Assembly (NCBI GenBank): GCA_016178505.1 | Contig: JACOTG010000048.1 | Span: forward strand, 5,110-69,109 | Origin: Planctomycetota bacterium | Lineage (GTDB): Bacteria; Planctomycetota; JACOTG01 | Reading direction: 5' to 3' | DNA: 64,000 nucleotides | Part shown: one piece after another, positions 1,755 through 22,243 of the stretch | How positions within the stretch are numbered: the stretch's first letter is position 1 | Layout: the number at the start of each line of letters is the position of its first letter | Translations under genes and position numbers: made by a program | The notes under the pieces: generated by a model | What the model was told of the DNA's origin: nothing | Seen by the model: only the letters and a program-made list of their open reading frames with translations | Database searches by the model: none

Positions 1755-2345
1755 TTGACCAACGATTACGTCCGTACTGCACTCGTCGTCGCCGGCATCT
1801 TCGACCGACTGGACATCCCGTACTTCGTGGCCGACTCGGTCGCGAGTTCGCTTCTCGGGGAGATTCGTTCGACGAAGGACGTCGACTTCGTCGCGGACCT
1901 GACCGAGGATCGGGTCGACTCGTTCGTCGCGGCGATGGGCGCCGACTTCTACGCGGATGACGCGACGATCCGCGATGCCATTCGCCGTCGAGCGTCGTTC
2001 AACATCATCGACCTTGCAACGATGACGAAGGTCGACGCGTTTCCGATCCGCGACCTCCATGCTCGTGAGGAGATGCGGCGGCGACGGCGAACGGCGATTG
2101 CCGACTCTCCCGTTGAATCACTCTTCTTGCCGACTCCCGAAGACATCGTGCTCGACAAACTCGAGTGGTATCGCCGCGGCGGCGGCGTCTCGGACCGGCA
2201 GTGGCGCGATCTGCTCGGAGTGCTGAAGGCCCAGGCCGACAAACTGGACCTCGAGTACCTTGAGCAATGGGCCGAGTCGCTCGACTTGTCCGATCTCCTG
2301 GCCCGAGCGTTGGCCGAGGCCGGAATTCCACAGCGACCGCGCTAA
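1755..2345 (+). CDS. nucleotidyltransferase-fold protein (minimal NTase / AbiEii-like family)
   Basis: The N-terminus GIFDRLDIPYFVADSVASSLLGEIRSTKDVDFVADL fits the hG[GS]...DhD NTase motif, followed by a helical C-terminus. TTG start 1 nt after the upstream stop. Confidence 0.5.
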   Translation: MTNDYVRTALVVAGIFDRLDIPYFVADSVASSLLGEIRSTKDVDFVADLTEDRVDSFVAAMGADFYADDATIRDAIRRRASFNIIDLATMTKVDAFPIRDLHAREEMRRRRRTAIADSPVESLFLPTPEDIVLDKLEWYRRGGGVSDRQWRDLLGVLKAQADKLDLEYLEQWAESLDLSDLLARALAEAGIPQRPR

Positions 2346-2452
2346 TGAGAGTGGCGAATCGCGTCGCAGAGATTCGGCGACGGACCATTCTCGTGAAGGG
2401 ATCGGCGAGTCTTGAAAGGGACGTCGTTCTTGCAGCGTCGACTTCATTCCGT

Positions 2453-4984
2453 CTATTCTTCCCGCAAGAGCCGGAGAGTCTTCACATCAATCTCAGAAAT
2501 CCGTGGACCAAACGTTTCACGAAACGCCACTGCTGTGCGCGTGAGCCACTCGATGGCCCCCTGCCAGGTTCCGCGTTCGATGAGCCGGACCTCGTGCGTG
2601 AGCTTGATGCGCTTGTTCCGCTTGTCAGGCCTGGCGTCCCATTCGAGCGGAGCACCGATCCCATCGTCGATCGCCTCGCGCGCCTTCGCCAGTTCCTTGA
2701 ACACCAGACTAGCATCGTCCCCGGTCAGCATCATCGTGACGCATACGCGGTGCTCCGGGACGACTGCGGTCAGTGACAGGTACATGTTGGTTCGACCCAG
2801 GGCGATGTCGTAATAGTGCCGCGGGTGTGGAGATCGGAGGTTGGGAAACTTGCCTGTCGCGGCCAACGCCGGCTTCATCTGAGTCCAGAAGTCGAGCTGC
2901 AACTGCTTCAGTTGAGTCGGTGGATCAGCACTACCAGCCTCATTTTCGTCACCAACGCGTCCGATAGAATTGTATACGACCTGCCATTCGTCAGGGCCGA
3001 TGCCTGCAATCTGCGCCGCCTGCACGCACAGCCTGTGAATCGATGAGGCTGAAAGGTTTGTCTCTACATAGGCACCGTTGTTGAGGCGCCTAGGGCGGCT
3101 TGACCTGCGGAAGCTACCGGCGTCGAAGCTCACCATCCGCGGCAGATCGGCGACGACCCGCTTGAACTCCTCGTCGCCAATGGCGGCGATGCTCTCCAGC
3201 ATCACGATCGCTACTTCAGCCCAGGACTGAACGGGGGTCGAGTGCTCGCGGACCCACACCAGGTTGGGCACCGTTCCCTTCACGGACACCTGATCTGCTT
3301 CGGCGGACTCGACTGACTCCTGTTCGGGACCGAAGTACGGCCAGAGTAACACTGCGAGTTCGGTCAGAACTTCAGATCGGCGCTCGATCTCTTTCGCCGT
3401 CCAACGATCAACCTTCTCGAAGTAGCGATTCAACTCAATGTGACTCACTGCGAAAAGCTGCTTCTTTTCAATGAACGGCGAGTTGCTCAGCTCTGGGTTG
3501 TAACTGGTGAGGGTGAGGTTCCCGAGGGTATGGAGCAGGGCCTCGTGGTCTTCGTCCCAGGTTTCACCGAGCTCCGCCTTCCAGCCATCAGTGAGTGACT
3601 GCGGCATGACGTGCTCGATGGATAGGCTCGACGTTTCGACCCGCTCCTTGTGTCCCAGTCTCCCCTCCAGGCACTCTAGGATTAGGCGGGTCTTCTCTCG
3701 CCGCTCACCACTGCCATACAGCCGCGCGGCCGCGAGACGGTCGCGAAACGTGTCGTCGCGCGGACAGTTCTTGCTGGCAAGAATGCGTTTGATGGCCTCG
3801 ACGAAGTCGGATTCCGACCCAGCCTGATCGTAAAGCGGCGCGAAGATCTTGTTGAGGCCATGCGTGGGGACGCCGACAACGAACCGGCGAACGATGAAAT
3901 TCTCGATCACATCGAGGATAGCGAGTAGTTCGGGTTCGGCGCGACTGCCGCTGGCCATATCAGCGTATACGCGCAGCACGAACGGGTACGCGACCGTCAC
4001 TTCGAGCCTATTCAGGCGCAACAACCGTTCGCGGAGTGCGTTGCTCGGCGCCTTCTCAGGGCGCAACAGCACCTCATAGAACTCCGAGAAGCGATTGAGC
4101 CGTGTGAGGTGCTCGAGTGGCGACTTGGTGGAGTCATCGTCGACGATCGCCTTCAGCCCCGAGTAGACGTCGGACTCTCGCACGACCGTGCCGGACTGAG
4201 TGAGATAGTGGCGTACGAAGTCAGTCAACGCCTCTTCTCCGAGACGCTTCTGCATCGGCCGCCACAGATCCAAGTAAACGCGGTCGTGCTCTGGCTCGGG
4301 GAGGCGCATGAAGAAGTAATTCCGAATGAGGTCGGCCTGCGACAACGGGCGCCCCTTGCCGTTAAGGCTCTCGAAGATCCGGTGAGGATTGTCCTTCTCG
4401 TCAAGGATGATGCTTACGAGTGTCAACCTTGAAGTAATCGCTCGTTGAAGCGCTTCGAGGTTCGATTGATCCCCACGTCGGAGCTTAGTCGCGAAGAATC
4501 CGTAGGCGGCGTTGATGCCAGTCTTTGATGGCCGCCGCTCACCCCCTTCGATGAGGCGAATGAACGTGTCGCGATCGCTATCTGCCGGATCGTCGCCTTG
4601 CGTTGGCAGCAGCTTGTAGCGGTCATGGCCTTCTTCGTGTCGATTCGTGATGAGGTCCTGAATCTTGTCGGCGAGTTTGCTTTCTCCCACGTTACGCGCC
4701 TGATCCCGCACGAGTATGAGCAGGATGATCAACGTCGTCAGGCGCTGCTGCCCATCGATGAGAAGGCGCTTTTCAACACCTTCGGGCACCGAGCGGGCCG
4801 GTGCGGACACGATCGGCCCGAGGAAGTGGGGCTTGGAGTGTGGATCGTCCAGGAGCTCTTCAAGATCATGCCAGAGTGTCTTCCACTGTTCCTCGCGCCA
4901 CGAATAGGGACGTTGGAAATGGGGGATGAGGAATTGCTTGCTGCCCTCGAGGACGCGCTGAATCTTCGCTTCGCCGGCTTCCAT
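2453..4984 (-). CDS. GmrSD-like type IV restriction-family protein (N-terminal DUF262/ParB-like NTPase and DUF1524 His-Me nuclease) with a roughly 250-aa extra C-terminal region
   Basis: 843 aa. FQRPYSW and IDGQQRLTT are DUF262 motifs. The downstream SIEHVMPQSL region is DUF1524-like. The gene lies in a segment of visibly lower GC than its flanks. Confidence 0.75.
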   Translation of the reverse strand: MEAGEAKIQRVLEGSKQFLIPHFQRPYSWREEQWKTLWHDLEELLDDPHSKPHFLGPIVSAPARSVPEGVEKRLLIDGQQRLTTLIILLILVRDQARNVGESKLADKIQDLITNRHEEGHDRYKLLPTQGDDPADSDRDTFIRLIEGGERRPSKTGINAAYGFFATKLRRGDQSNLEALQRAITSRLTLVSIILDEKDNPHRIFESLNGKGRPLSQADLIRNYFFMRLPEPEHDRVYLDLWRPMQKRLGEEALTDFVRHYLTQSGTVVRESDVYSGLKAIVDDDSTKSPLEHLTRLNRFSEFYEVLLRPEKAPSNALRERLLRLNRLEVTVAYPFVLRVYADMASGSRAEPELLAILDVIENFIVRRFVVGVPTHGLNKIFAPLYDQAGSESDFVEAIKRILASKNCPRDDTFRDRLAAARLYGSGERREKTRLILECLEGRLGHKERVETSSLSIEHVMPQSLTDGWKAELGETWDEDHEALLHTLGNLTLTSYNPELSNSPFIEKKQLFAVSHIELNRYFEKVDRWTAKEIERRSEVLTELAVLLWPYFGPEQESVESAEADQVSVKGTVPNLVWVREHSTPVQSWAEVAIVMLESIAAIGDEEFKRVVADLPRMVSFDAGSFRRSSRPRRLNNGAYVETNLSASSIHRLCVQAAQIAGIGPDEWQVVYNSIGRVGDENEAGSADPPTQLKQLQLDFWTQMKPALAATGKFPNLRSPHPRHYYDIALGRTNMYLSLTAVVPEHRVCVTMMLTGDDASLVFKELAKAREAIDDGIGAPLEWDARPDKRNKRIKLTHEVRLIERGTWQGAIEWLTRTAVAFRETFGPRISEIDVKTLRLLREE

Positions 4985-11721: not shown

Positions 11722-13701
11722 TCAGAACTCGATCTGAGCGCCGAGTTCCACGACGCGGTTCGGAGGAAGGCCAAAGTACTCCGTCGCCGAGCGCGCGTTT
11801 CGCGACATGAACGTGAAGAGCCGCTTTCGCCAGCGCGCGAGCCGTGCGCGACCGGTCGGGATGAGCTGCTCGCGGCCGAGGTAGTAGGTCGTGTCGCTCG
11901 GGCGAACCTTCATGCCGGCGTGTCCGCAATCGGTCATGACTTCGCGCACGCGCGGCGTCTGCATGAACCCGAACTTCGCCGTGACGCGAAAGAATCCCTC
12001 GCCGAGCGACTCCACGTGCACGCGGTCTCGCCGCGGCACCTCCGGCACGACCGCCGTCACGATCGACAGCAAGATCACCTGCTCGTGGAGCACCTTGTTG
12101 TGCTTCAGGTGGTGCAAGAGCACGACCGGCGCGCCGCTGGGGTCCGACGTCATGAACACGGCGGTGCCAGGCACGCGGATCGGCTTTGCGCGCTTCACAT
12201 CGTCGAGAAACGTCTCGAGGGGAAGGCTCGCGGCGCGGAGGATCTTGAGCAACTCCTGCCGCCCGCGCCTCCAGGTCGTCATCATGGAGTAGACCACGAC
12301 GGCGACCACCAGCGGGAACCAACCGCCGTGTTGGATCTTCACGGCGTTCGCGAACAAGAACGAGAGATCGATCACGAGGAAGAACAGGAGGAACACGCCT
12401 GAGTTTGCTCCCGACCACTGCCAGCGCTCGTGCGCGATCACGTAGAAGAGCAGCGTCGTGATCACCATCGTGCCCGTCACCGCGATGCCGTACGCCGACG
12501 CGAGAGCGCTCGACGATCCGAAGCCGAGCACGAGCGCGATGGATCCGATCATGAGCGCTTGATTGATCTCGGGGATGTAGATCTGGCCGGCCTCATCCTT
12601 CGACGTGTGCCGAACCGTCACCCGCGGCGAGTAGCCGAGCTGCATGGCCTGCTGTGTGAGCGAGAAGGCTCCCGAGATCAGAGCCTGAGACGCGATGACC
12701 GCGGCCGTCGTCGCCAGGATCAACATCGGGTACTGCAGCACCGATGGTACGAGCCGATAGAACGGGTTGACCGCGGCGCTCGCGTCCCGCAAGAGGAGAG
12801 CGCCTTGACCGAAGTAGTTGAGGAGCAGCGCCGGGAACACGAGCGCGAACCACGCCAGCCGGATCGGACGTCGCCCGAAGTGCCCCATGTCGGCGTACAG
12901 GGCTTCCGCTCCAGTGACGACGAGAACGACCGCGCCGAGGATCAGGAACCCGTGCAGCCCGTTGTGGCGGAAGAACTGCACGCCGTACCACGGATTGACG
13001 GCACCGAGGATTTCCGGTTCGCGCGCGATCTCCGCCACTCCGAGCGCCGCGATGCTCACGAACCACACGAGCATGATCGGTCCGAAGACCCGGCCGATGC
13101 CGTCGGTCCCGCGGCGTTGGAAGACGAACAGCACCAACAGCACGAGGACGGTCGCGGGCACCACGAACTTCTCGAACACGGGCGCCGCGACCTTCAACCC
13201 TTCGAGGGCACCGAGGACGGAGATCGCGGGCGTGATGATTCCGTCGCCGTACAGGAGCGCAGCACCGAAGATCCCGAGCGCGATCAGCACCGGCATTCGA
13301 ACCGTGCCGGTGCTCTGCTGGAGGCGCTGTTGAATCAGTGCAAAGAGAGCGAGGATGCCCCCCTCTCCGTCGTTGTCGGCCCGCATGATGAAGACGATGT
13401 ACTTGACGCTGACGACGAGGGTGAGCGACCAGACGATGAGCGACAGGATGCCGTACACGTTTTCCGGAGTGTGCACGACGCCGGACGTGGAGCCGAAGCA
13501 CTCCTTGAGCGCGTAGAGCGGGCTCGTTCCGATGTCGCCGTACACGACGCCGAGCGCCGTGAGCGAGAGCACGCCGAGCCTCTTGCCTCGCGGGCGGACG
13601 TCGACGCGATGGCGGTCTTGAGGAATCAGGAACGTGCCGGAAGCGTCGCGGCGCGGAACTTCGCCGCCGGCATCATCCGCCGATCGTTGATCAGGGTTCA
13701 A
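11722..13701 (-). CDS. kup: KUP/HAK/KT potassium transporter
   Basis: GDIGTSPLY signature, 12 predicted transmembrane helices, about 650 aa. Probably a TTG start. Confidence 0.85.
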   Translation of the reverse strand: MNPDQRSADDAGGEVPRRDASGTFLIPQDRHRVDVRPRGKRLGVLSLTALGVVYGDIGTSPLYALKECFGSTSGVVHTPENVYGILSLIVWSLTLVVSVKYIVFIMRADNDGEGGILALFALIQQRLQQSTGTVRMPVLIALGIFGAALLYGDGIITPAISVLGALEGLKVAAPVFEKFVVPATVLVLLVLFVFQRRGTDGIGRVFGPIMLVWFVSIAALGVAEIAREPEILGAVNPWYGVQFFRHNGLHGFLILGAVVLVVTGAEALYADMGHFGRRPIRLAWFALVFPALLLNYFGQGALLLRDASAAVNPFYRLVPSVLQYPMLILATTAAVIASQALISGAFSLTQQAMQLGYSPRVTVRHTSKDEAGQIYIPEINQALMIGSIALVLGFGSSSALASAYGIAVTGTMVITTLLFYVIAHERWQWSGANSGVFLLFFLVIDLSFLFANAVKIQHGGWFPLVVAVVVYSMMTTWRRGRQELLKILRAASLPLETFLDDVKRAKPIRVPGTAVFMTSDPSGAPVVLLHHLKHNKVLHEQVILLSIVTAVVPEVPRRDRVHVESLGEGFFRVTAKFGFMQTPRVREVMTDCGHAGMKVRPSDTTYYLGREQLIPTGRARLARWRKRLFTFMSRNARSATEYFGLPPNRVVELGAQIEF

Positions 13702-13898: not shown

Positions 13899-15146
13899 TC
13901 ACAGGAAGCTCAGCCAGGCCGCGCGACGCCGGCTCTTCACTCCCGCGAACCATCGGCAGGGAAAGTACAGCGCGGCGACGACGAGCGCGGTCACGAGGTA
14001 CACGACGGGAAGCGAGTACCCGTAGCCCGGCGGCGGTGGGCCCGCGGCCATCGGTTGGTTTGCCGTCAACCACGGCACGATCACGCCGAAGTGGGCGAGC
14101 GACAGCGCGATCGCGATCCCATGGATGAGCGGGATGTGCAGCACGTAGTAGAAGAACGGGACGCGCCCGATCGTCGCGACGGCGTCGACGATTCGGCCCC
14201 GCGCGCGCTCGATCAGCGGGAGCAGGGCGATCGTCGGCCCGAGCGTCATCAACAAGTACAGCAGCGACGCCGGGTACTTCTGCGTGTTCACGAACGCCAG
14301 CACGGTGAGCATCGGGGACGCCTGGGGTGTCCACGGCCTCGGATCGCCGTAGAGGTTGATTTCGCGCAGGACGAGGAACGCCGCGATCGAAGCCAGGCCG
14401 ATGCCGAGACTGAGTCGTCGCCGTCGCGCCGCGTCGAGCGTCAGGATGGAGCCGAACGCGTAGCCCAGCGCCATCACGCCGACCCACGGAACGATCGAGA
14501 ACAGAATCGCGAGCGTCGGCCCGCCGCCGATCGAGACCGGGCCGCCGTAGTAGAGGATTTGCCAAAACCATCGCCACTCGCTCGTTTGCAGCTTCGACAG
14601 GATCGTGGGCGCGAAGCCATTGAGCACGTTGTGGCCGGCGACGAGAGCGAGGCCGATCAGCGCAATCGCGCCCATCGGCAGCCACACGAGCGCGGCGAGT
14701 CCGACGAGACACCACCCGATCATCCAGATCACGCCGCCGAGCAAGTAGTGCGAGAAGTCGAGGTTGAACGTCCAGCCGAGGCGCATCACGGTCAACTCGA
14801 TGACGACGAGCCACAGGCCGCGTGCGAGGAGGAAGCGCGACAGCGCCGCGCGACTCTCGGTGCGACGGCCGTGGAGAAACGTACCCGTGCCGGCGAGGAA
14901 GACGAACGCGGGCGCGCAGAAGTGCGTCACCCATCGCGTGAGGAAGATCGCGACGCTCGCATTCGCGAGATTCGTCGGGTCGCCGCGAAAGTCGGAGAGG
15001 AACCAGCGCACGTGATCGAGCGCCATCAGCACCATGACGGCGCCGCGGACCACGTCGAGCGATGCGATGCGTTGTCGAGGCGTCGATGGCGCGGTCGCGA
15101 CGAACCCGCCCGACGCGACGTCGTTGCTGGCAGTCACCGTTGGCAT
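13899..15146 (-). CDS. DUF1624 / HGSNAT-like membrane acyltransferase-family protein
   Basis: The true start (MPTVTAS, ATG 15146, RBS GGAG) is internal to the 751-aa six-frame ORF. RIASLDVVRGAVMVLMALDH motif followed by a polytopic membrane protein. Confidence 0.55.
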   Translation of the reverse strand: MPTVTASNDVASGGFVATAPSTPRQRIASLDVVRGAVMVLMALDHVRWFLSDFRGDPTNLANASVAIFLTRWVTHFCAPAFVFLAGTGTFLHGRRTESRAALSRFLLARGLWLVVIELTVMRLGWTFNLDFSHYLLGGVIWMIGWCLVGLAALVWLPMGAIALIGLALVAGHNVLNGFAPTILSKLQTSEWRWFWQILYYGGPVSIGGGPTLAILFSIVPWVGVMALGYAFGSILTLDAARRRRLSLGIGLASIAAFLVLREINLYGDPRPWTPQASPMLTVLAFVNTQKYPASLLYLLMTLGPTIALLPLIERARGRIVDAVATIGRVPFFYYVLHIPLIHGIAIALSLAHFGVIVPWLTANQPMAAGPPPPGYGYSLPVVYLVTALVVAALYFPCRWFAGVKSRRRAAWLSFL

Positions 15147-15392: not shown

Positions 15393-16193
15393 ATGAGCCA
15401 AGCGCCGAAGTTGTCGTTGATCTTCCCGACGTTCGTCGTGCCCGACGTGCGCGCGACGGTCGCGTACTATCGCGATGCGCTCGGCTTCCGACCGTGCACC
15501 GAGGCGGGGACCCCGCCGAACCTGTTCGCGATCGTCGAGAGCGCGCCCGGACAGGGTTTTCACTTCAAGCATTCGGCGAGCGCGATCGGCCGAAAGAATC
15601 GCGCGGACGGCGGCGACCAGCTCGACGCCTACGTTCGAATCGGCCGCGGCGAGGACGTCGACCGCCTGTCCGCGGCGCTGACGAAGGGTGGCGCGGCTCG
15701 CATCGCGGCGCCGATCGACCGACCGTGGAAGATGCGCGAGCTGGAGCTCGTGGACCCGAACGGCTTCGCCCTTTGCTTCGCCGGCGATCTCGCGGGCGAG
15801 GCCACGCCGGGAACGATCGTCGTGTCCCCGCAGTTCGTCGTGCGCGACGTCGCAAAGACCGCGGCGTGGTATCAGGACGTGCTCGGGTTCCGAACGCTGG
15901 GGCAATGGGGCGAGCCGCCCGAGTACGCAATCGTTGCGCGCGACGACGTGCGCGTTCATCTCGGCCGCGCCGCCGAAGGCGCACGCATTCGCAAGAATCG
16001 CGACGCCGCCGGGATCTGGGACGCGTACGTCGAGTGTCGCGGGATGGACGCGCTTCACGACGCTTTCCGCGGACGCGGCGCGACGATCGTGCGCGGACCG
16101 CAGAACGCGGAGTACGACATGCGAGAACTCGTCGTTCGCACGCCGGACGGCCACGACCTCTGCTTCGGCGAGCCCGTCATCGCGAGCCGCTGA
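15393..16193 (+). CDS. tandem VOC (glyoxalase/bleomycin-resistance/dioxygenase-fold) domain protein
   Basis: Two copies of the F(V)VPDV..YYRDxLGF VOC module. Confidence 0.7.
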   Translation: MSQAPKLSLIFPTFVVPDVRATVAYYRDALGFRPCTEAGTPPNLFAIVESAPGQGFHFKHSASAIGRKNRADGGDQLDAYVRIGRGEDVDRLSAALTKGGAARIAAPIDRPWKMRELELVDPNGFALCFAGDLAGEATPGTIVVSPQFVVRDVAKTAAWYQDVLGFRTLGQWGEPPEYAIVARDDVRVHLGRAAEGARIRKNRDAAGIWDAYVECRGMDALHDAFRGRGATIVRGPQNAEYDMRELVVRTPDGHDLCFGEPVIASR

Positions 16194-16251
16194 CCCCTGG
16201 ATCGGTTCGCGGCGGGCGTCGTATCATGTCGGCCTCCCGGGTCCAGTTTTC

Positions 16252-17364
16252 ATGGAGGATGGCGAAGTGATTCTCACCCGCATCATCGCGACCGCTCTTT
16301 TCGTGTCGTCGCTCGGGCTCTCGCGGTTCGTTCCCGCGCCCGCCGCGTGCGACGTTTGCCACGACCAGAAAACGGTCCAATGCCCGAACTGCGAAGGCAA
16401 GGGCACGTTCCTCGACAAGTGCCCGACTTGCGAGGGCAAGGGCAAGATGCCATGCCCGATCGAGGGCTGCGGCACGACGAAGAAGGGGATGCTTCCCTGC
16501 CCGAACAAGTCATGCGTCAAGGGCATGATCCCGTGGGAGGGGGGCGACAAGGATTCCTGCCACATTTGCTCGGGACGCGGCGCCATCGATTGCCCGACGT
16601 GCAACGATTCCGAGGTCACGTGCTTCCGTTGCGCGGGCAAGCACACGGTGCAGTGGGGGTGTCTCGACTGTCGCTCGACCGGCCGGCTTCCTTGTCCGAA
16701 GTGCCAGCTTCGGGTGGACGCTTCAGACTGCGTGTGGTGTCACGGCGCCCACGATCTCACGTGTCCGCGATGCAAGGGGAGCGGAAACGAGCTCTTCGTG
16801 TGTCCGGTTTGCCGAGGGACGGACAAGGCATACTGCACCGAGTGTCTCGGACTGGGAAAGGTCGCGTGCGACACCTGCCACGGCACGGGATGGAAGCGCT
16901 ACAAGATGGTCGACAGGTCCGGAGTGAACCACGGCTCCGGCGGGCGGCGGCAATGCGACTCGTGCAACGGCACCGGGACCGAGACTTGTCCGCAGGGCAA
17001 GGATCGGCAGCTGCCGTGCTGGATCGGGAACGTGTTGAAGCGGTGGAAGCACGTCGAAGGCAAACTCGTCGCGAGCTGTCTCTGGTGCGACGGGGACAAG
17101 CACCTTCCGTGCGGAGGGTGCTACCGCGGCGAGCAGCGCGGTCTCGAGATTTCGGCTCGCGTTCTCGCCAAGGCGAATCATCACGCGGAGGCGGCGACGA
17201 TGCTGCGCGCGGCACTCGCTCGGGCGCAGGCCTATTTTGCGCGCGGCCCACAAGGCGAAGTGAAGTCGCCGGACGATCTCGCCAAGTTCAATCGCGCTCG
17301 CTCCGACACTCTGGCGCGCATCGAGGGCGAAATCGCAACCGAGGAAAAGACGCCGGCGAAATAG
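16252..17364 (+). CDS. membrane-anchored protein with multiple DnaJ-type CxxCxGxG zinc-finger motifs
   Basis: N-terminal hydrophobic segment. Eight CxxCxGxG motifs (CPNCEGKG, CPTCEGKG, CHICSGRG, CPRCKGSG, CPVCRGTD, CTECLGLG, CDTCHGTG, CDSCNGTG) plus further CxxC pairs. The start is internal to the six-frame ORF 15688..17364. Confidence 0.6.
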   Translation: MEDGEVILTRIIATALFVSSLGLSRFVPAPAACDVCHDQKTVQCPNCEGKGTFLDKCPTCEGKGKMPCPIEGCGTTKKGMLPCPNKSCVKGMIPWEGGDKDSCHICSGRGAIDCPTCNDSEVTCFRCAGKHTVQWGCLDCRSTGRLPCPKCQLRVDASDCVWCHGAHDLTCPRCKGSGNELFVCPVCRGTDKAYCTECLGLGKVACDTCHGTGWKRYKMVDRSGVNHGSGGRRQCDSCNGTGTETCPQGKDRQLPCWIGNVLKRWKHVEGKLVASCLWCDGDKHLPCGGCYRGEQRGLEISARVLAKANHHAEAATMLRAALARAQAYFARGPQGEVKSPDDLAKFNRARSDTLARIEGEIATEEKTPAK

Positions 17365-17374
17365 GCGACCGCTT

Positions 17375-17938
17375 TCAGCGCAGCGATTCGAGCGCGGTCC
17401 ATCCTGTTTTCGAAACGTGCTTCGACGCGTCGAGTGTCTGCGCCGCGGCGCGCAGCGCCTCCCCGTCGCGCGCAACGACGAGCGCGAGCGGCACGCCGTC
17501 CCGATCCTCGGTCCAGACTGAACCCGAGAGCTTGCCGGACGCCTCGGCCCAGCGCGGTGCGAGGAGTTTGTCCGCGGCGACGATCGCATTCGTCGCGAGA
17601 ACGAGATCGTCCGCGGAGAGGACCGAGCCCGGACGCGTCACCAGCTCGTCCACGCTCGTTGCGTCGTGTGAGACGCGCGAGTACGGCTCGTACGGACCGT
17701 CGCCGTCGTCGCGGTTCGACGTCCACGTCGGGCGCTTTTCGCGATACACGCGAAGCCAGTCGGGGTCGGATGCGCCCGGGCCGAGCAGCCAATCGCGGTA
17801 TCCCGAGCCGTGGTGCGCCCTGCCCGCCGCCGCATCGCGCGCATGGACGAGCGTCGCGGGATAGTTCGCGAAGACCTCGAACGACGGCGCGTCGGAGGAC
17901 GCAGCGAGTGAGGCGAGAAGGGTCAACGCGGGAATCAT
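17375..17938 (-). CDS. small secreted hypothetical protein
   Basis: Start at Met43 of the ORF (MIPALTLLASLAASSDAP signal peptide). No domain recognised. Confidence 0.4.
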   Translation of the reverse strand: MIPALTLLASLAASSDAPSFEVFANYPATLVHARDAAAGRAHHGSGYRDWLLGPGASDPDWLRVYREKRPTWTSNRDDGDGPYEPYSRVSHDATSVDELVTRPGSVLSADDLVLATNAIVAADKLLAPRWAEASGKLSGSVWTEDRDGVPLALVVARDGEALRAAAQTLDASKHVSKTGWTALESLR

Positions 17939-17981: not shown

Positions 17982-19757
17982 TCACTTCTTCGCGGCCTCT
18001 TCCACGATGCGCGGAAGGAGGTTCTCCTCGCCGAGCTTCCAGCGCTGAACCTCCTTGCCGGCAACGAAGATCATCGGGATCGCCGTGAGGCCGAGCTTCT
18101 TCGCCGCCGCCACGTCGTCGCCGATCGAGTTCAGGAGCTCTGGAAGCTGCATGGCCTCCCACAAGACGTCGCCCTCGATGCCGATGGCCGTCGCCTCGGC
18201 CGAGACCGTGGCCTTGTTGAAGTCTCCTTGGTGCGTCATCAGCCAGTCGTGCATTTTCCAGAACGCCTCGATGCCGCCGAGCGCGGCGCTGGCCTCGGCC
18301 GCGCGCGCGGCGAGGCACGCGAGCGGGTGGAGAGTTTTCTCGGCCGTCCCGTTGCACTGTTGATCGACGGGGTAGTGGCGGAACGCGTACCTCACGTCCG
18401 AGCGCACCTTCACCATCGTGCGACACGTGCGATCGACTTCGGCCGTGTACGGCTCCTGGTAGTCGCCGAAGACGACGATGCTCACGGGCGCCGAGTCAGG
18501 GCCGAGCGTTCGGGGGAACGCGTCGGGCGGCATCGCCACGGTCGGTGCCTCGCGCCAGTCGCCGAGGCTCTTCTCGAGCGCCAACGCCGGTCGATCGGAC
18601 TCGGCCGTGGTCGCCGCCGGGCGCTTCGCCTCGAGCGTGGCGATCGTTCGCAGGACGGCGTCGGGCGCGTTCCAGCCGCGAAGCTCCACGCCGTTCACGA
18701 AGATCATCGGCGTCGTCGAGATCCCGAGCTTCATCGCCTCCGCAATGTCGGCCTGCACGTTTGCGAGCGTCTGCGGACCGTGAATGGCGGCGACGACTCG
18801 CGTGCGATCCAGCCCCAACTCCGCGAGCCCGCGGTCCAGTTCCTCGTTCGTGAACGAGCCGCCGCGTGCGAACAACCACTCGTGCATCTTCCAGAAGCCC
18901 GCCGATCCGCCGACCTGACCCGCGGCCTCGGCAGCGCGCGCGGCCCAACAAGCGTTCGCGTGCATCGTGGGCGCGTTCGGGTTGCACTCGGCGCACATGG
19001 GGAAGTGCTTCACGGAGAGCGACACGGAATCGTGCGTCTTCATCGCGGTGCGCAGCTCGCCCTCGATGCGCTTGCAGTCGGGGCACTGGTAGTCGGTGAA
19101 GACGACGATGCGGATCGCGGCGGGATCGGGTCCCAAGCGGTAGCGTCCGGTGAAGGTGCCCGTGAACTTTCCCATTTCCGACATCGACGCGGCGAGGTCG
19201 CGCTCGGCGCGCGCGCGCACGGCGCCGCGGGTGGAATGCTCCGCGAACGCGAGAAGTCCGGTCATCAGCGCGAAGGCCGCGACGCCGGTCGCGACTTGCC
19301 ATTTCGAAGGCGCGGCCGCCGGACGAGCGAGGCGTCCCCACTCGACGATTGCCCAAAAGACGACGCTTGCGACGTGAACCGCGAGGCACCACGGACAGAG
19401 GAGTTGCTCGCCGATCATCGCCCCGACGAACGTCGTCGACCCGAAGGCGCCGAGCCGCGAAAGCCAGGCGAGGCTCGGGCCCGGCGTGCCGCGCGCCGCG
19501 CTCCACGCCGCCGCAAGGCCCGCGAACCAGGCGACACCGAGGAACGAGACGGGCCAATCGACGAGCGGGACCTTGCCCCACGTGCTCGCCGCGAGCTTCG
19601 CGCACGCGCTCTCAGGCCCGCAGCCCGGAACGGCCATCGCGCCCAAGTGTCCGAGCGCCAGCACGAGCGCGCTTCCGCCCGCGACGACGAGCGCCACGAG
19701 CCCGAATCCAAAGCGGAGCGATGCCGACTGCGGTGGAGCGGGAACCGACTTCGTCAT
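17982..19757 (-). CDS. vitamin K epoxide reductase (VKOR) domain fused to two DsbA-like thioredoxin domains
   Basis: N-terminal VKOR-like transmembrane region with CxxC (CPWC). Two DsbA-like modules (DYQCPDC; FGDYQEP...QCNG). 591 aa. Confidence 0.75.
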   Translation of the reverse strand: MTKSVPAPPQSASLRFGFGLVALVVAGGSALVLALGHLGAMAVPGCGPESACAKLAASTWGKVPLVDWPVSFLGVAWFAGLAAAWSAARGTPGPSLAWLSRLGAFGSTTFVGAMIGEQLLCPWCLAVHVASVVFWAIVEWGRLARPAAAPSKWQVATGVAAFALMTGLLAFAEHSTRGAVRARAERDLAASMSEMGKFTGTFTGRYRLGPDPAAIRIVVFTDYQCPDCKRIEGELRTAMKTHDSVSLSVKHFPMCAECNPNAPTMHANACWAARAAEAAGQVGGSAGFWKMHEWLFARGGSFTNEELDRGLAELGLDRTRVVAAIHGPQTLANVQADIAEAMKLGISTTPMIFVNGVELRGWNAPDAVLRTIATLEAKRPAATTAESDRPALALEKSLGDWREAPTVAMPPDAFPRTLGPDSAPVSIVVFGDYQEPYTAEVDRTCRTMVKVRSDVRYAFRHYPVDQQCNGTAEKTLHPLACLAARAAEASAALGGIEAFWKMHDWLMTHQGDFNKATVSAEATAIGIEGDVLWEAMQLPELLNSIGDDVAAAKKLGLTAIPMIFVAGKEVQRWKLGEENLLPRIVEEAAKK

Positions 19758-20050: not shown

Positions 20051-22243
20051 GTGACCCTCACCCGAAGGCGCATGGCGTCGGCGATTCTGGCCGGACTCGT
20101 CTTACTGGGTACGGGCATGTTGATTTGGCGCATGATGCGCTCGGAAACGCCTGGGCCATCAAATGGCGCGACTCCTGCTCTGAGTGCGACGCGGACTGAG
20201 ACGCGATCTTCGACGACTACTGGGACTGAACGCGAACTCTCGCGATCGAGTGTCGCAGAACTCCAACGTTCTCCGTCGACGGCGAATCGCTTGGGCGCCT
20301 TGCGGGGTCGGGTGATTGGGCGCGCCGGAGAGCCGGTTTCGAGCGCAACGGTCGAGGTGCGGAAAAACTCGGCGAGCGACTCGTCCATATTGCGGCCAGA
20401 CGTGTCCGCGCCGCCCCTACGAAGTGTGGCGACGGATCGAAATGGAGAATTCAGCTTCGACCTTCCGGCTGGACGGTCGTTCGATCTTCGTGTGATGGCT
20501 GAGGGCTTTGCGCCGATCGTCCGGACCGACCGTTACGCGGGAGAGAACGTCCTCGTCGAAGTCGGACGCGGGGGAACGATCCGCGGAAACGTGAGCCGAT
20601 CGACCGACGGCACTCCGGTCGCGAATGCAATCGTTCGGCTGTCCGGCGGTGGCGCTGACATCGCGAGTCGCAGCGAGACGGACCCAGGAGGCCGCTACGA
20701 GATCGAAGTGGGCGATCCCGGAACGTACTGGTTGAGTGTCTATCCATCGGCGGATGGTGCAGTCGAATCACGAAGGATCGATCTCGAGGAAGGCGAGACT
20801 GTGCGCCAAGACATCGAGGTCGATCCCGGTGTCACCTTCTCGGGACGCGTGACCGATGCCCGAAGCCATGAGCCGATCATCGGGGCTCACGTGACGGATC
20901 GCGGTATCGGCGAGAGATTCGCGGAGACGAACTCGGACGGATACTTCATGCTCGACGGAATCAACCCAGCTCCTCAACGAGGGATTTTCATTCGCGCGAG
21001 CGCCCCGGATCATGCGACCGCGGAGCTCCATGTCGATTCGGCCACTGCGGCGGCGGCACCGCTCGAGTTCGCGCTCCAACGTGGCGGCGACGCACGCGGG
21101 GTCGTCATCGATGCGATGGGCAGACCCGCCTCGGACGTCGAGGTTTCGATACTCGTCATCGACCCTCGCTACATGATGCCGCGTCAAACCACACCGGCGA
21201 TTCTCAGCCGTGCCGACGGCGCCTTCGAGTTTCGAGAGCTGCGTCCCGATGCACGTCATCTCCTCATTGCACGGAAGGATGGTTTCGCGACCCGGACAGC
21301 CGTACTCGATTCGTTTGGCGAACATGCCGGCGTGGCCGATCTTGGCGTCTTTGCGCTCGATCCCCCCGCATCGATTGTCGGACGCGTCACGCGCGAAACG
21401 GGCGAGCCGGTTTCCGACGTGTTCGTGAAGATCGAGTCGTGCGACCGAAGCCGGGGATCGTCGGAAACGCCTCTCGATGCGATCGCGCTTTCGAGCTCGC
21501 GCTCACGGCGCACGGACACGACGGGCCGTTTCTGCATCACGGATTTGGCGGCAGGGCGATATCGGGTGAGTGCCCAGATTCAGGGGCGGCGCAACGACGC
21601 GAAGCGCGACATCGAATTGAAGGTCGGACAAGCGGTCGACGGAATCGATCTCGTCCTCGAGCAAGGACCCTCGATCAGCGGAAGGGTCGTCGATTCGTTT
21701 GGAAAGGGCGTTTCGTTCGTACGCATCGAAGCGTTCGCCGATTCCCTCCCGAAGTCGGCCAAGACGCGGCTCTCGACCGAATCCGACGGTTCCTTCCACA
21801 TCGAGGGGCTCGCCGAAGGAACGTACACCGTCACTGCGCAACGTGTCGAACTCAGCGGTAATCGAGGTGAGTCTCCATTCGGTGTAGGGATTGCCCGTGG
21901 AGTCGCCACCGGATCCGAGGCGCTTCAAATCGAACTTCGCCGTGCGCGACCGACGTCAGGCATTCTCCTCGATCACGAAGATCAGCCCGTCGCCGGCCTC
22001 ACGATTCTCGTATCCGATCCGATAGATCGATTCAGTGATGTCACGGTCACGGATGCCGAGGGTCGATTTTCGATCGTCATGCCGGAACCGGCGCAGTTGA
22101 ACTTCGACGTCGCGACCACGAGCGGATTTACACTCGACGTCTCGGGCCCCGGTACGGTCGAGGCTGCGGTGGCGGAGCGTGCCGTCACAGGAATCCAGTC
22201 GGGAGTGAGCGACTTGGTTTTTCGTCTAGTGCCTAAACGCTAG
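20051..22243 (+). CDS. membrane-anchored protein with tandem carboxypeptidase-regulatory-like (CarbopepD_reg) domains
   Basis: N-terminal transmembrane helix, then repeated G(R)V.D..G.PV beta-sandwich modules (GRVIGRAGEPVSSATV, ISGRVVDSFGKGVSFVRI, and others). Confidence 0.6.
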   Translation: MTLTRRRMASAILAGLVLLGTGMLIWRMMRSETPGPSNGATPALSATRTETRSSTTTGTERELSRSSVAELQRSPSTANRLGALRGRVIGRAGEPVSSATVEVRKNSASDSSILRPDVSAPPLRSVATDRNGEFSFDLPAGRSFDLRVMAEGFAPIVRTDRYAGENVLVEVGRGGTIRGNVSRSTDGTPVANAIVRLSGGGADIASRSETDPGGRYEIEVGDPGTYWLSVYPSADGAVESRRIDLEEGETVRQDIEVDPGVTFSGRVTDARSHEPIIGAHVTDRGIGERFAETNSDGYFMLDGINPAPQRGIFIRASAPDHATAELHVDSATAAAAPLEFALQRGGDARGVVIDAMGRPASDVEVSILVIDPRYMMPRQTTPAILSRADGAFEFRELRPDARHLLIARKDGFATRTAVLDSFGEHAGVADLGVFALDPPASIVGRVTRETGEPVSDVFVKIESCDRSRGSSETPLDAIALSSSRSRRTDTTGRFCITDLAAGRYRVSAQIQGRRNDAKRDIELKVGQAVDGIDLVLEQGPSISGRVVDSFGKGVSFVRIEAFADSLPKSAKTRLSTESDGSFHIEGLAEGTYTVTAQRVELSGNRGESPFGVGIARGVATGSEALQIELRRARPTSGILLDHEDQPVAGLTILVSDPIDRFSDVTVTDAEGRFSIVMPEPAQLNFDVATTSGFTLDVSGPGTVEAAVAERAVTGIQSGVSDLVFRLVPKR

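Follow-up and report, generated by a model that had tools for sequence, protein, structure and literature searches.

What kind of protein is encoded by a cysteine-rich open reading frame (ORF) of a Planctomycetota bacterium is the question raised by a 64,000-nucleotide stretch of its genome (GenBank assembly GCA_016178505.1, contig JACOTG010000048.1, positions 5,110 to 69,109; this whole stretch is referred to as the window). The ORF lies at 16252..17364 on the forward strand of the window, runs uninterrupted from an ATG at 16252 to a stop codon at 17362-17364, and encodes 370 amino acids, of which 38 (10.2%) are cysteine; residues are numbered throughout from this ATG. The reading presented here, to which a probability of about 0.45 is assigned as a whole, is that the product is a periplasmic protein made of two ladders of nested zinc sites and a tetratricopeptide repeat (TPR)-like cap, and that it serves as a holdase or scaffold. 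The architecture by itself is considered probable. The function by itself, which is drawn from analogy, is doubtful.

The ORF is a real gene, conserved in homologues. The GC content at codon positions 1, 2, and 3 was 0.59, 0.54, and 0.81 in a window that averages ~65% GC, and the high third-position value indicates that the frame is coding. An initial annotation had judged the region to be coding and expected a codon-usage check to settle the point, as it did. GC-rich windows hold many long spurious ORFs, with 44 ORFs listed in 8 kb here, but the notion of a chance ORF is refuted by the third-position GC, by full-length homologues at 67 down to 23% identity with invariant cysteines, and by a confident AlphaFold2 model with a mean predicted local distance difference test score (pLDDT) of 93.7.

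The cysteine knuckle array and its pairing

A word-indexed homologue search returned five clusters, at 100, 67, 52, 31, and 23% identity. An exhaustive HMMER search with the alignment of these five clusters returned 2839 representatives at an E value of ≤1e-3, 357 at ≤1e-10, and 97 at ≤1e-30, and the matches were mostly full-length among the best 150 listed. The window protein alone, used as the query against GTDB representative genome contigs, found no relative, and no paralogue of the gene was found inside the window. The 109 full-length members that were aligned have 360 to 465 residues (median, 390), 35 to 44 cysteines, and a median pI of 8.8. All of the named members are "hypothetical protein" entries from Planctomycetes or Planctomycetota metagenome-assembled genomes (MAGs), and one European Nucleotide Archive contig with a family member was also binned as Planctomycetota. 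No Pfam or NCBIfam threshold was passed, which, with the uniform naming of the relatives, supports the earlier impression that the architecture is not recognizable as a described family; literature searches turned up no account of a bacterial protein of this kind. Longer relatives (P0107, P0133, and others) had no informative fused Pfam domains.

The cysteines are highly ordered. When the residues of the protein were shuffled 20,000 times, CxxC was expected 3.8 ± 1.8 times (maximum, 14) and strict CxxCxGxG 0.05 times (maximum, 2), compared to 16 and 7 occurrences in the window protein, which also has 11 CxxCxG motifs, two Cx4C knuckles (C68/C73 and C83/C88), and two lone cysteines (C246 and C256). 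The initial annotation had proposed about eight CxxCxGxG motifs, which is essentially right, given a strict count of seven and many relaxed knuckles besides; its further observation of extra CxxC pairs, and of more motifs than the four of DnaJ, stands. In the family alignment, 40 cysteine columns with at least 25% occupancy make up 20 knuckles, with glycine at +5 and +7 conserved in most of them, and nearly all of the cysteines are kept in homologues down to 23% identity. Outside of cysteine and glycine, almost nothing is conserved, apart from a few alanine, leucine, and arginine residues in a helical domain near the C terminus.

The knuckles fall into two modules. The N-terminal module (knuckles N1 to N10; 16348..16704 on the forward strand, residues 33-151) has its first cysteines at residues 33, 44, 57, 68, and 83 and then at 103, 114, 124, 137, and 148, and the C-terminal module (knuckles C1 to C10; 16729..17121, forward strand, residues 160-290) has them at residues 160, 171, 184, 195, and 206 and then at 235, 246, 256, 276, and 287. 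The modal distances between first cysteines across the family are 11, 13, 11, a variable 15 to 65, ~18, 11, 10 or 11, 13, and 11 in the N half and 11, 13, 11, 11, ~22, 11, 10, 13, and 11 in the C half, with a modal linker of 12 residues between the halves. The spacing of each half is mirror-symmetric about a turn at its center, and the pattern of one half recurs in the other. An alignment of the N half with the C half by hhalign had a probability of 99.4% and placed all ten knuckles in register over 116 columns, with an E value (3.8e-21) that may be inflated by the cysteine-rich composition, so that it is the end-to-end register that matters. Judged from this alignment, the C-terminal module is a duplicate of the N-terminal module. 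In most family members, the interval between N4 and N5 (residues 68-83 of the window protein) holds a cysteine-free insert of 25 to 50 residues that is apparently helical in sequence (median spacing, 53), and the clade of the window protein has the minimal spacing of 15 residues.

Insight into which knuckles belong together came from their joint presence and from covariation. Knuckles N1 (C33/C36) and N10 (C148/C151), which are ~112 to 115 residues apart, were both present in 45 and both absent in 63 of the 109 sequences, with one exception, and thus behave as one four-cysteine unit, with joint gain or loss in 108 of the 109 cases. Mean-field direct coupling analysis (DCA) was applied to the 109-sequence alignment (effective number of sequences, ~108), the couplings were summed per knuckle block, and the 945 perfect matchings of ten knuckles were ranked. 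The top pairs included, in the N-terminal module, 33/36 with 148/151; 46-139, 51-142, and 51-144 (N2 and N9); 64-131 (N3 and N8); and 91-110 (N5 and N6), and N1-N10, N2-N9, N3-N8, and N5-N6 were reciprocal best partners. The fully nested matching (N1-N10, N2-N9, N3-N8, N4-N7, and N5-N6) ranked first of 945, compared to ranks of 99 and 119 for adjacent-pair alternatives. On this covariation, the N-terminal module is a set of five nested four-cysteine units, with predicted Cys4 sites at N1+N10, N2+N9, N3+N8, N4+N7, and N5+N6. Each ten-knuckle module would then fold as one long β-hairpin, in which knuckle k of the outgoing arm and knuckle 11-k of the returning arm would supply the four thiolates of one tetrahedral metal site.

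Nesting is also favored in the C-terminal module, because C2-C9 and C3-C8 are best DCA partners and there are couplings of residues 161 and 165 to residue 297, because this half is homologous to the N half, and because the modeled strands are mirror related. The DCA matchings do not discriminate in this module, whose cysteine and glycine columns are almost invariant; the nested one ranked 63rd of 945 and an adjacent one 20th. The joint loss of C249 and C259, and that of C279 and C290, would fit sites formed by adjacent knuckles equally well. The lengths of mirror-related spacers showed no positive correlation and are thus uninformative on the pairing.

The AlphaFold2 model with a mean pLDDT of 93.7 was built from a 69-sequence alignment and had a predicted template-modeling (TM) score of 0.80; a 5-sequence alignment gave an unusable pLDDT of 49.8. 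The strands assigned to the model by DSSP are mirror related in both halves; they are five residues long in both 13-residue spacers (52-56/132-136 and 179-183/271-275) and three residues long elsewhere. A Foldseek search of the PDB gave no match at an E value of ≤1e-3, the top match being the zinc-finger region of DnaJA2 (E value, 0.012; TM score, 0.05), and the helical tail weakly resembled TPR, MIT, and SycD-like bundles. DCA contacts between the modules (W95-R216 and 104-203, the latter being 108-207 in match-column numbering) suggest a side-by-side arrangement of the two ladders, and contacts of 139/144 with 296 and of 146-150 with 346-362 suggest that their bases are packed against the C-terminal helices.

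These helices form a cysteine-free domain (17131..17349, forward strand, residues 294-366) with modeled helices at 294-307, 311-330, and 340-366 and a block-mean pLDDT of ~94 to 98 across most of its length. The first two helices make one TPR-like motif, and the third is predicted to lie against knuckle N10 and the linker that joins the modules. DCA contacts in or at the domain are 302-318, 299-356, 306-364, 146-355, and 149-350. The family profile matched consensus TPR proteins (9gzg; E value, 1.1e-6 summed over repeats) over ~30 to 40 residues only. Assignment as a TPR repeat protein, with three or more tandem 34-residue repeats, was rejected, as there is only one motif plus one helix and Pfam TPR_4 scored 9.7 bits versus a threshold of 27. 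The domain is instead pictured as a TPR-like three-helix cap that would pack against the ladder bases.

Metal ligation, disulfides, and export

The nature of the substitutions at lost cysteines bears on whether the knuckles bind metal. Among the 55 non-gap replacements in the family alignment, 14 are histidine and 3 are aspartate, with histidine in 10 members and aspartate in 2 at column 235, histidine in 3 at column 174, and one of each at column 249. Replacement of lost cysteines by histidine or aspartate points to metal ligands rather than disulfides, since cysteine-to-histidine swaps keep a metal site but would deprive a thiol of its partner if the cysteines were disulfide bonded. P0002, P0003, P0006, P0007, and P0009 form a six-member clade with the window protein, in which Cys259 is lost throughout and every member has Trp257 (forming a "CW") and an insert of 6 to 7 residues with an invariant histidine; a tandem paralogue at one homologue locus, L011, is alike. 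In the window protein, this clade-specific insert follows knuckle C8 (17029..17061, forward strand, residues 260-270) and contains the invariant His267-x-x-Gly270. His267 looks like a replacement ligand for the lost Cys259. L011 carries two tandem paralogues, at 2084-3181 (365 residues) and 3207-4310 (367 residues and 39 cysteines), both from the clade with CW plus histidine insert.

Up to ten metal sites are predicted in the family. In the window protein, the second cysteine is gone from C7 and C8 (G249 and G259), and eight complete Cys4 sites and two remodeled ones are expected: one of C184, C187, and C256 with, probably, His267, and another of C195, C198, and C246 with one further ligand. 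Zinc is most likely the bound metal.

The CxxC pairs invite a comparison with multiheme c-type cytochromes or other proteins with an iron cofactor. Three CxxCH motifs occur in the window protein (CDVCH, CVWCH, and CDTCH), and a cytochrome c assembly protein is encoded upstream of one homologue (L004). However, the family median of CxxCH is 0 per protein, 80 of the 109 members have none, no cytochrome Pfam model matched, and it is G-x-G rather than histidine that follows the cysteines, so that heme binding is effectively refuted.

The predicted location of the protein is outside of the cytoplasm. A predicted Sec signal peptide (16267..16344, forward strand, residues 6-31) has an n-region with R10, the h-region IIATALFVSSLGL, and a c-region of A29-P30-A31, followed by A32. 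A run of 13 to 14 uncharged residues between R10 and R25 makes up the hydrophobic stretch, and the protein has no other hydrophobic segment. Across the family, the uncharged N-terminal stretch measures 16 residues at the median and 25 at most, the h-region is 11 to 20 residues long, the c-region typically ends in AxA followed by Q(D/E), and 85 of the 109 members have lysine or arginine in the n-region. The family N termini are therefore most likely cleavable Sec signal peptides, and the most likely form of the protein is a soluble one, either periplasmic or secreted. This does not agree with the proposal in the initial annotation of a membrane-anchored protein with an N-terminal hydrophobic anchor, for which the stretch is too short; a membrane span requires at least 18 to 20 residues, and this candidate was rejected. 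A bacterial lipoprotein (lipobox L-[AS]-[GA]-C) was also rejected, as P-A-A precedes C33, and C33 is absent in 58% of the family. Sec export and cleavage near A31|A32 would give a soluble periplasmic protein of ~36.6 kDa that is basic (pI ~8.5).

Export raises the possibility of a ladder held together without metal, in which the 38 cysteines would form ~19 disulfides via DsbA and VKOR, across the arms or within knuckles, and would yield a very stable extracytoplasmic structural protein. The predicted signal peptide would direct the protein to an oxidizing periplasm, the gene for a VKOR protein fused to two DsbA domains lies 0.6 kb away, some cysteine losses are paired (249 with 259 and 279 with 290), and the Cys-rich region of ERdj3, a DnaJ protein of the endoplasmic reticulum lumen, is used for disulfides. 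Such a ladder is nonetheless unlikely: the single-cysteine losses to histidine (14) or aspartate (3) would create unpaired thiols, the four cysteines of N1 and N10 come and go as a unit, the CxxCxGxG signature and the profile matches described below connect the family with zinc-binding BSD2 and DnaJ domains, and the VKOR-DsbA neighborhood is not conserved.

Start site and neighboring genes

The start of the gene is probably downstream of ATG 16252, before which no Shine-Dalgarno-like motif was seen on sequence inspection. Such a motif, GGAGGA, is found by inspection at 16254..16259 (forward strand), 7 nucleotides 5' of a GTG at 16267, and the NCBI record of the same protein (P0001; [quoted passage not shown]; 365 residues) starts at this GTG. 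For both of these reasons, the true coding sequence is probably 16267..17364, with 365 residues. The 370-residue protein of the initial annotation is thus correct as an ORF without an internal stop but is probably five residues too long. A scan for promoters and terminators around the gene found nothing above chance.

Upstream, a 266-residue protein with two tandem glyoxalase/VOC domains is encoded at 15393-16193 on the forward strand, 58 nucleotides from the cysteine-rich gene, and a weak terminator-like hairpin at 16231-16243 between the two genes is within chance expectation. Farther upstream, a Kup-type K+ transporter (11722-13701, reverse strand) and an HGSNAT/acyltransferase-3 membrane protein (13899-15134, reverse strand) appear to be ordinary housekeeping neighbors. 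Downstream, the fusion of VKOR with two DsbA/Thioredoxin_4 domains (591 residues; 17982-19757, reverse strand) is convergent with the cysteine-rich gene. Between the two, and downstream of the fusion gene, lies an ORF of ~187 residues (17375-17938, reverse strand) with a signal-peptide-like N terminus (MIPALTLLASLAASS...), no cysteine, and no Pfam match; its stop codon and that of the cysteine-rich gene are 10 nucleotides apart. The functional link to the VKOR-DsbA neighbor that had been suggested is not borne out, given the opposite strand, the convergent orientation, the gene in between, and the absence of VKOR or DsbA genes among the neighbors shown on all 11 homologue contigs.

No neighbor of any kind was conserved across the 11 homologue loci, where inositol phosphatase, ABC/FtsX, PQQ, and amidase genes are found, with CarboxypepD_reg and FG-GAP genes in a few. 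Large proteins with multiple CarboxypepD_reg domains are encoded in the window at 20051-22243 (forward strand), 2.7 kb from the cysteine-rich gene, and beside or near homologues on several unrelated contigs, namely L005 (3287-5863), L006 (3283-5859 and 10089-12296), and L012 (10762-12723). CarboxypepD_reg and FG-GAP proteins are common exported proteins in Planctomycetota, and the recurrence of CarboxypepD_reg neighbors may reflect this abundance.

Relationship to DnaJ-type zinc domains and possible function

Comparison with known families placed the protein near the cysteine-rich domain (CRD) of DnaJ but below every threshold. Pfam DnaJ_CXXCXGXG (PF00684) scored 18.7 bits with the window protein, versus a gathering cutoff of 32.7 (E value, 0.0021), and 24 of the 109 members matched this model at an E value of <0.01 (best, 2.2e-7). 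The other subthreshold Pfam matches of the window protein, zf-AtTam37, GRXCR1-2_C, and BSD2_CRD (PF25436; 12.9 bits versus 27), were all weak; GRXCR1-2_C was matched by 14 family members and BSD2_CRD by 10. Nothing meaningful was found in the NCBIfam search of the window protein, in which RtpA (NF058604) scored 7.5 bits versus a cutoff of 65. Neither the J-domain (PF00226) nor DnaJ_C (PF01556) matched the window protein at an E value of ≤10 in Pfam, and the N terminus is a predicted signal peptide, in agreement with the earlier remark that a J-domain is lacking. When the family profile was compared with PDB sequences, the matches were BSD2 (6ekb; E value, 4.2e-6), EMB2737 (8xku_R; 1.2e-5), the Escherichia coli DnaJ CRD (1exk; 2.5e-4), 6jzb (1.3e-3), and anti-TRAP (7.6e-3), for which the weak matches were to 3lcz and 2bx9. 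At the level of profiles, remote homology of the family to the zinc-binding CRDs of DnaJ and BSD2 is significant.

In the DnaJ CRD, motif 1 pairs with motif 4 and motif 2 with motif 3 in Cys4 zinc sites, as established for PDB 1EXK. The family shares with this domain the CxxCxGxG knuckles on a predicted β-hairpin and, in the N-terminal module, the nested pairing of outer with outer and inner with inner motifs, and it would stretch the principle from two rungs to five. The predicted hairpin has ten knuckles and five rungs in the family versus four and two in DnaJ, and it occurs twice in tandem with a tighter spacing of 11 to 13 residues. Furthermore, the family lacks the J-domain, the G/F region, and the C-terminal substrate-binding domains of DnaJ, and it is predicted to be exported, whereas DnaJ is cytosolic.

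The plastid J-domain-less DnaJ-like proteins (BSD2 [6EKB], ZnJ6, LQY1, PSA2, OR, and EMB2737) provide the best sequence matches of the family among solved structures. These proteins also have stand-alone CRDs and an N-terminal signal to a noncytosolic compartment, and their roles are those of holdases, assembly factors, or oxidizing chaperones. However, they are eukaryotic and have four motifs and two zinc ions in ~60 to 80 residues, compared to twenty knuckles, two duplicated modules of five predicted rungs each, and a TPR-like cap in the Planctomycetota family. Anti-TRAP (RtpA) of Bacillus, a small bacterial zinc protein, resembles the DnaJ CRD and also lacks a J-domain, but it has 53 residues, is cytosolic, and forms a single zinc site from adjacent knuckles. 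The tandem zinc-ribbon arrays in the C-terminal domains of topoisomerases I and III, to which there was a weak TOP3A match, also carry several Cys4 sites per chain. Their ribbons are independent and each site is built from sequence-adjacent knuckles, in contrast to the mirror-related knuckles, up to 115 residues apart, of the N-terminal module. The building block is thus already known, and what appears to be undescribed so far is a nested hairpin of five rungs, its duplication in tandem, the TPR-like cap, and the bacterial extracytoplasmic setting.

Because almost nothing is conserved outside of cysteine and glycine except alanine, leucine, and arginine in the cap, the most likely picture of the protein is that of a rigid platform stapled by metal, not that of an enzyme. 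By analogy with BSD2, ZnJ6, and LQY1, we infer that it may act, independently of ATP, as a holdase or scaffold toward other exported proteins. A holdase or a redox protein had also been suggested in the initial annotation, and as an analogy this suggestion is reasonable.

Among plant and algal DnaJ-like proteins, redox zinc-thiolate behavior has been reported for ZnJ6, LQY1, and CYO1, as it has for Hsp33, and the family might similarly be a chaperone or oxidoreductase whose CxxC motifs cycle between thiolate and disulfide, as a periplasmic oxidase, isomerase, or oxidative-stress switch. The predicted extracytoplasmic location and the twenty CxxC motifs are in keeping with this, as is the likeness in motif type to ZnJ6, a protein with four CxxCxGxG-type motifs that binds zinc, has holdase activity, and oxidizes reduced RNase A (PMC7865324). 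There is, however, no thioredoxin fold, no conserved residue near any CxxC that might tune its redox potential, and no conserved redox partner in the gene context, and it seems decidedly unlikely that the protein works in this manner. It is very improbable that the Cys4 centers themselves are redox active, as rubredoxin-like iron sites or by thiolate/disulfide cycling, with two roughly parallel five-center rods serving as an electron or thiol-disulfide relay or as a redox capacitor.

Another function to be considered for so many thiolates is periplasmic metal buffering or sequestration, in which ten thiolate sites per 37 kDa would act as a zinc store or a trap for Cd, Hg, or Cu(I), like a structured metallothionein. 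The Cys4 sites are very dense and conserved, they are the sole conserved feature of a protein with poorly conserved surface residues, and the protein is predicted to be exported. On the other hand, the strict spacing, GxG turns, internal duplication, and TPR-like cap suggest structural, slow-exchange sites, and no metal-resistance or zinc-uptake genes recur nearby. Metallothioneins are small, with Cys-x-Cys clusters and no regular secondary structure, and these hallmarks are missing from the family, a comparison made from general knowledge in which no bacterial metallothionein model was searched directly. A buffering role is thus quite improbable.

For the preferred reading of an exported, zinc-stapled holdase or scaffold, there are also points on the other side. 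The signal-peptide call is rule based (the -3/-1 rule). Cys4 zinc sites are unusual in an oxidizing periplasm with DsbA and VKOR, and exported cysteine-rich proteins are usually disulfide bonded. The gene context, which is not conserved, gives no independent support for a chaperone role.

If the reading is correct, the two-zinc hairpin of DnaJ has been extended to a five-rung "zinc ladder" that is present twice in a single exported protein. We know of no comparably long nested zinc-stapled hairpin, and the compactness and high regularity of the fold might make it interesting as a scaffold in protein design. It would also have to be explained how a compartment that contains DsbA allows Cys4 zinc sites to be put together and to stay reduced. 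The family is widespread in Planctomycetota metagenomes, and a Pfam-style family could be defined directly from the 109-sequence alignment; its members would be bacterial and periplasmic equivalents of the J-domain-less DnaJ-like chaperones found in plastids.

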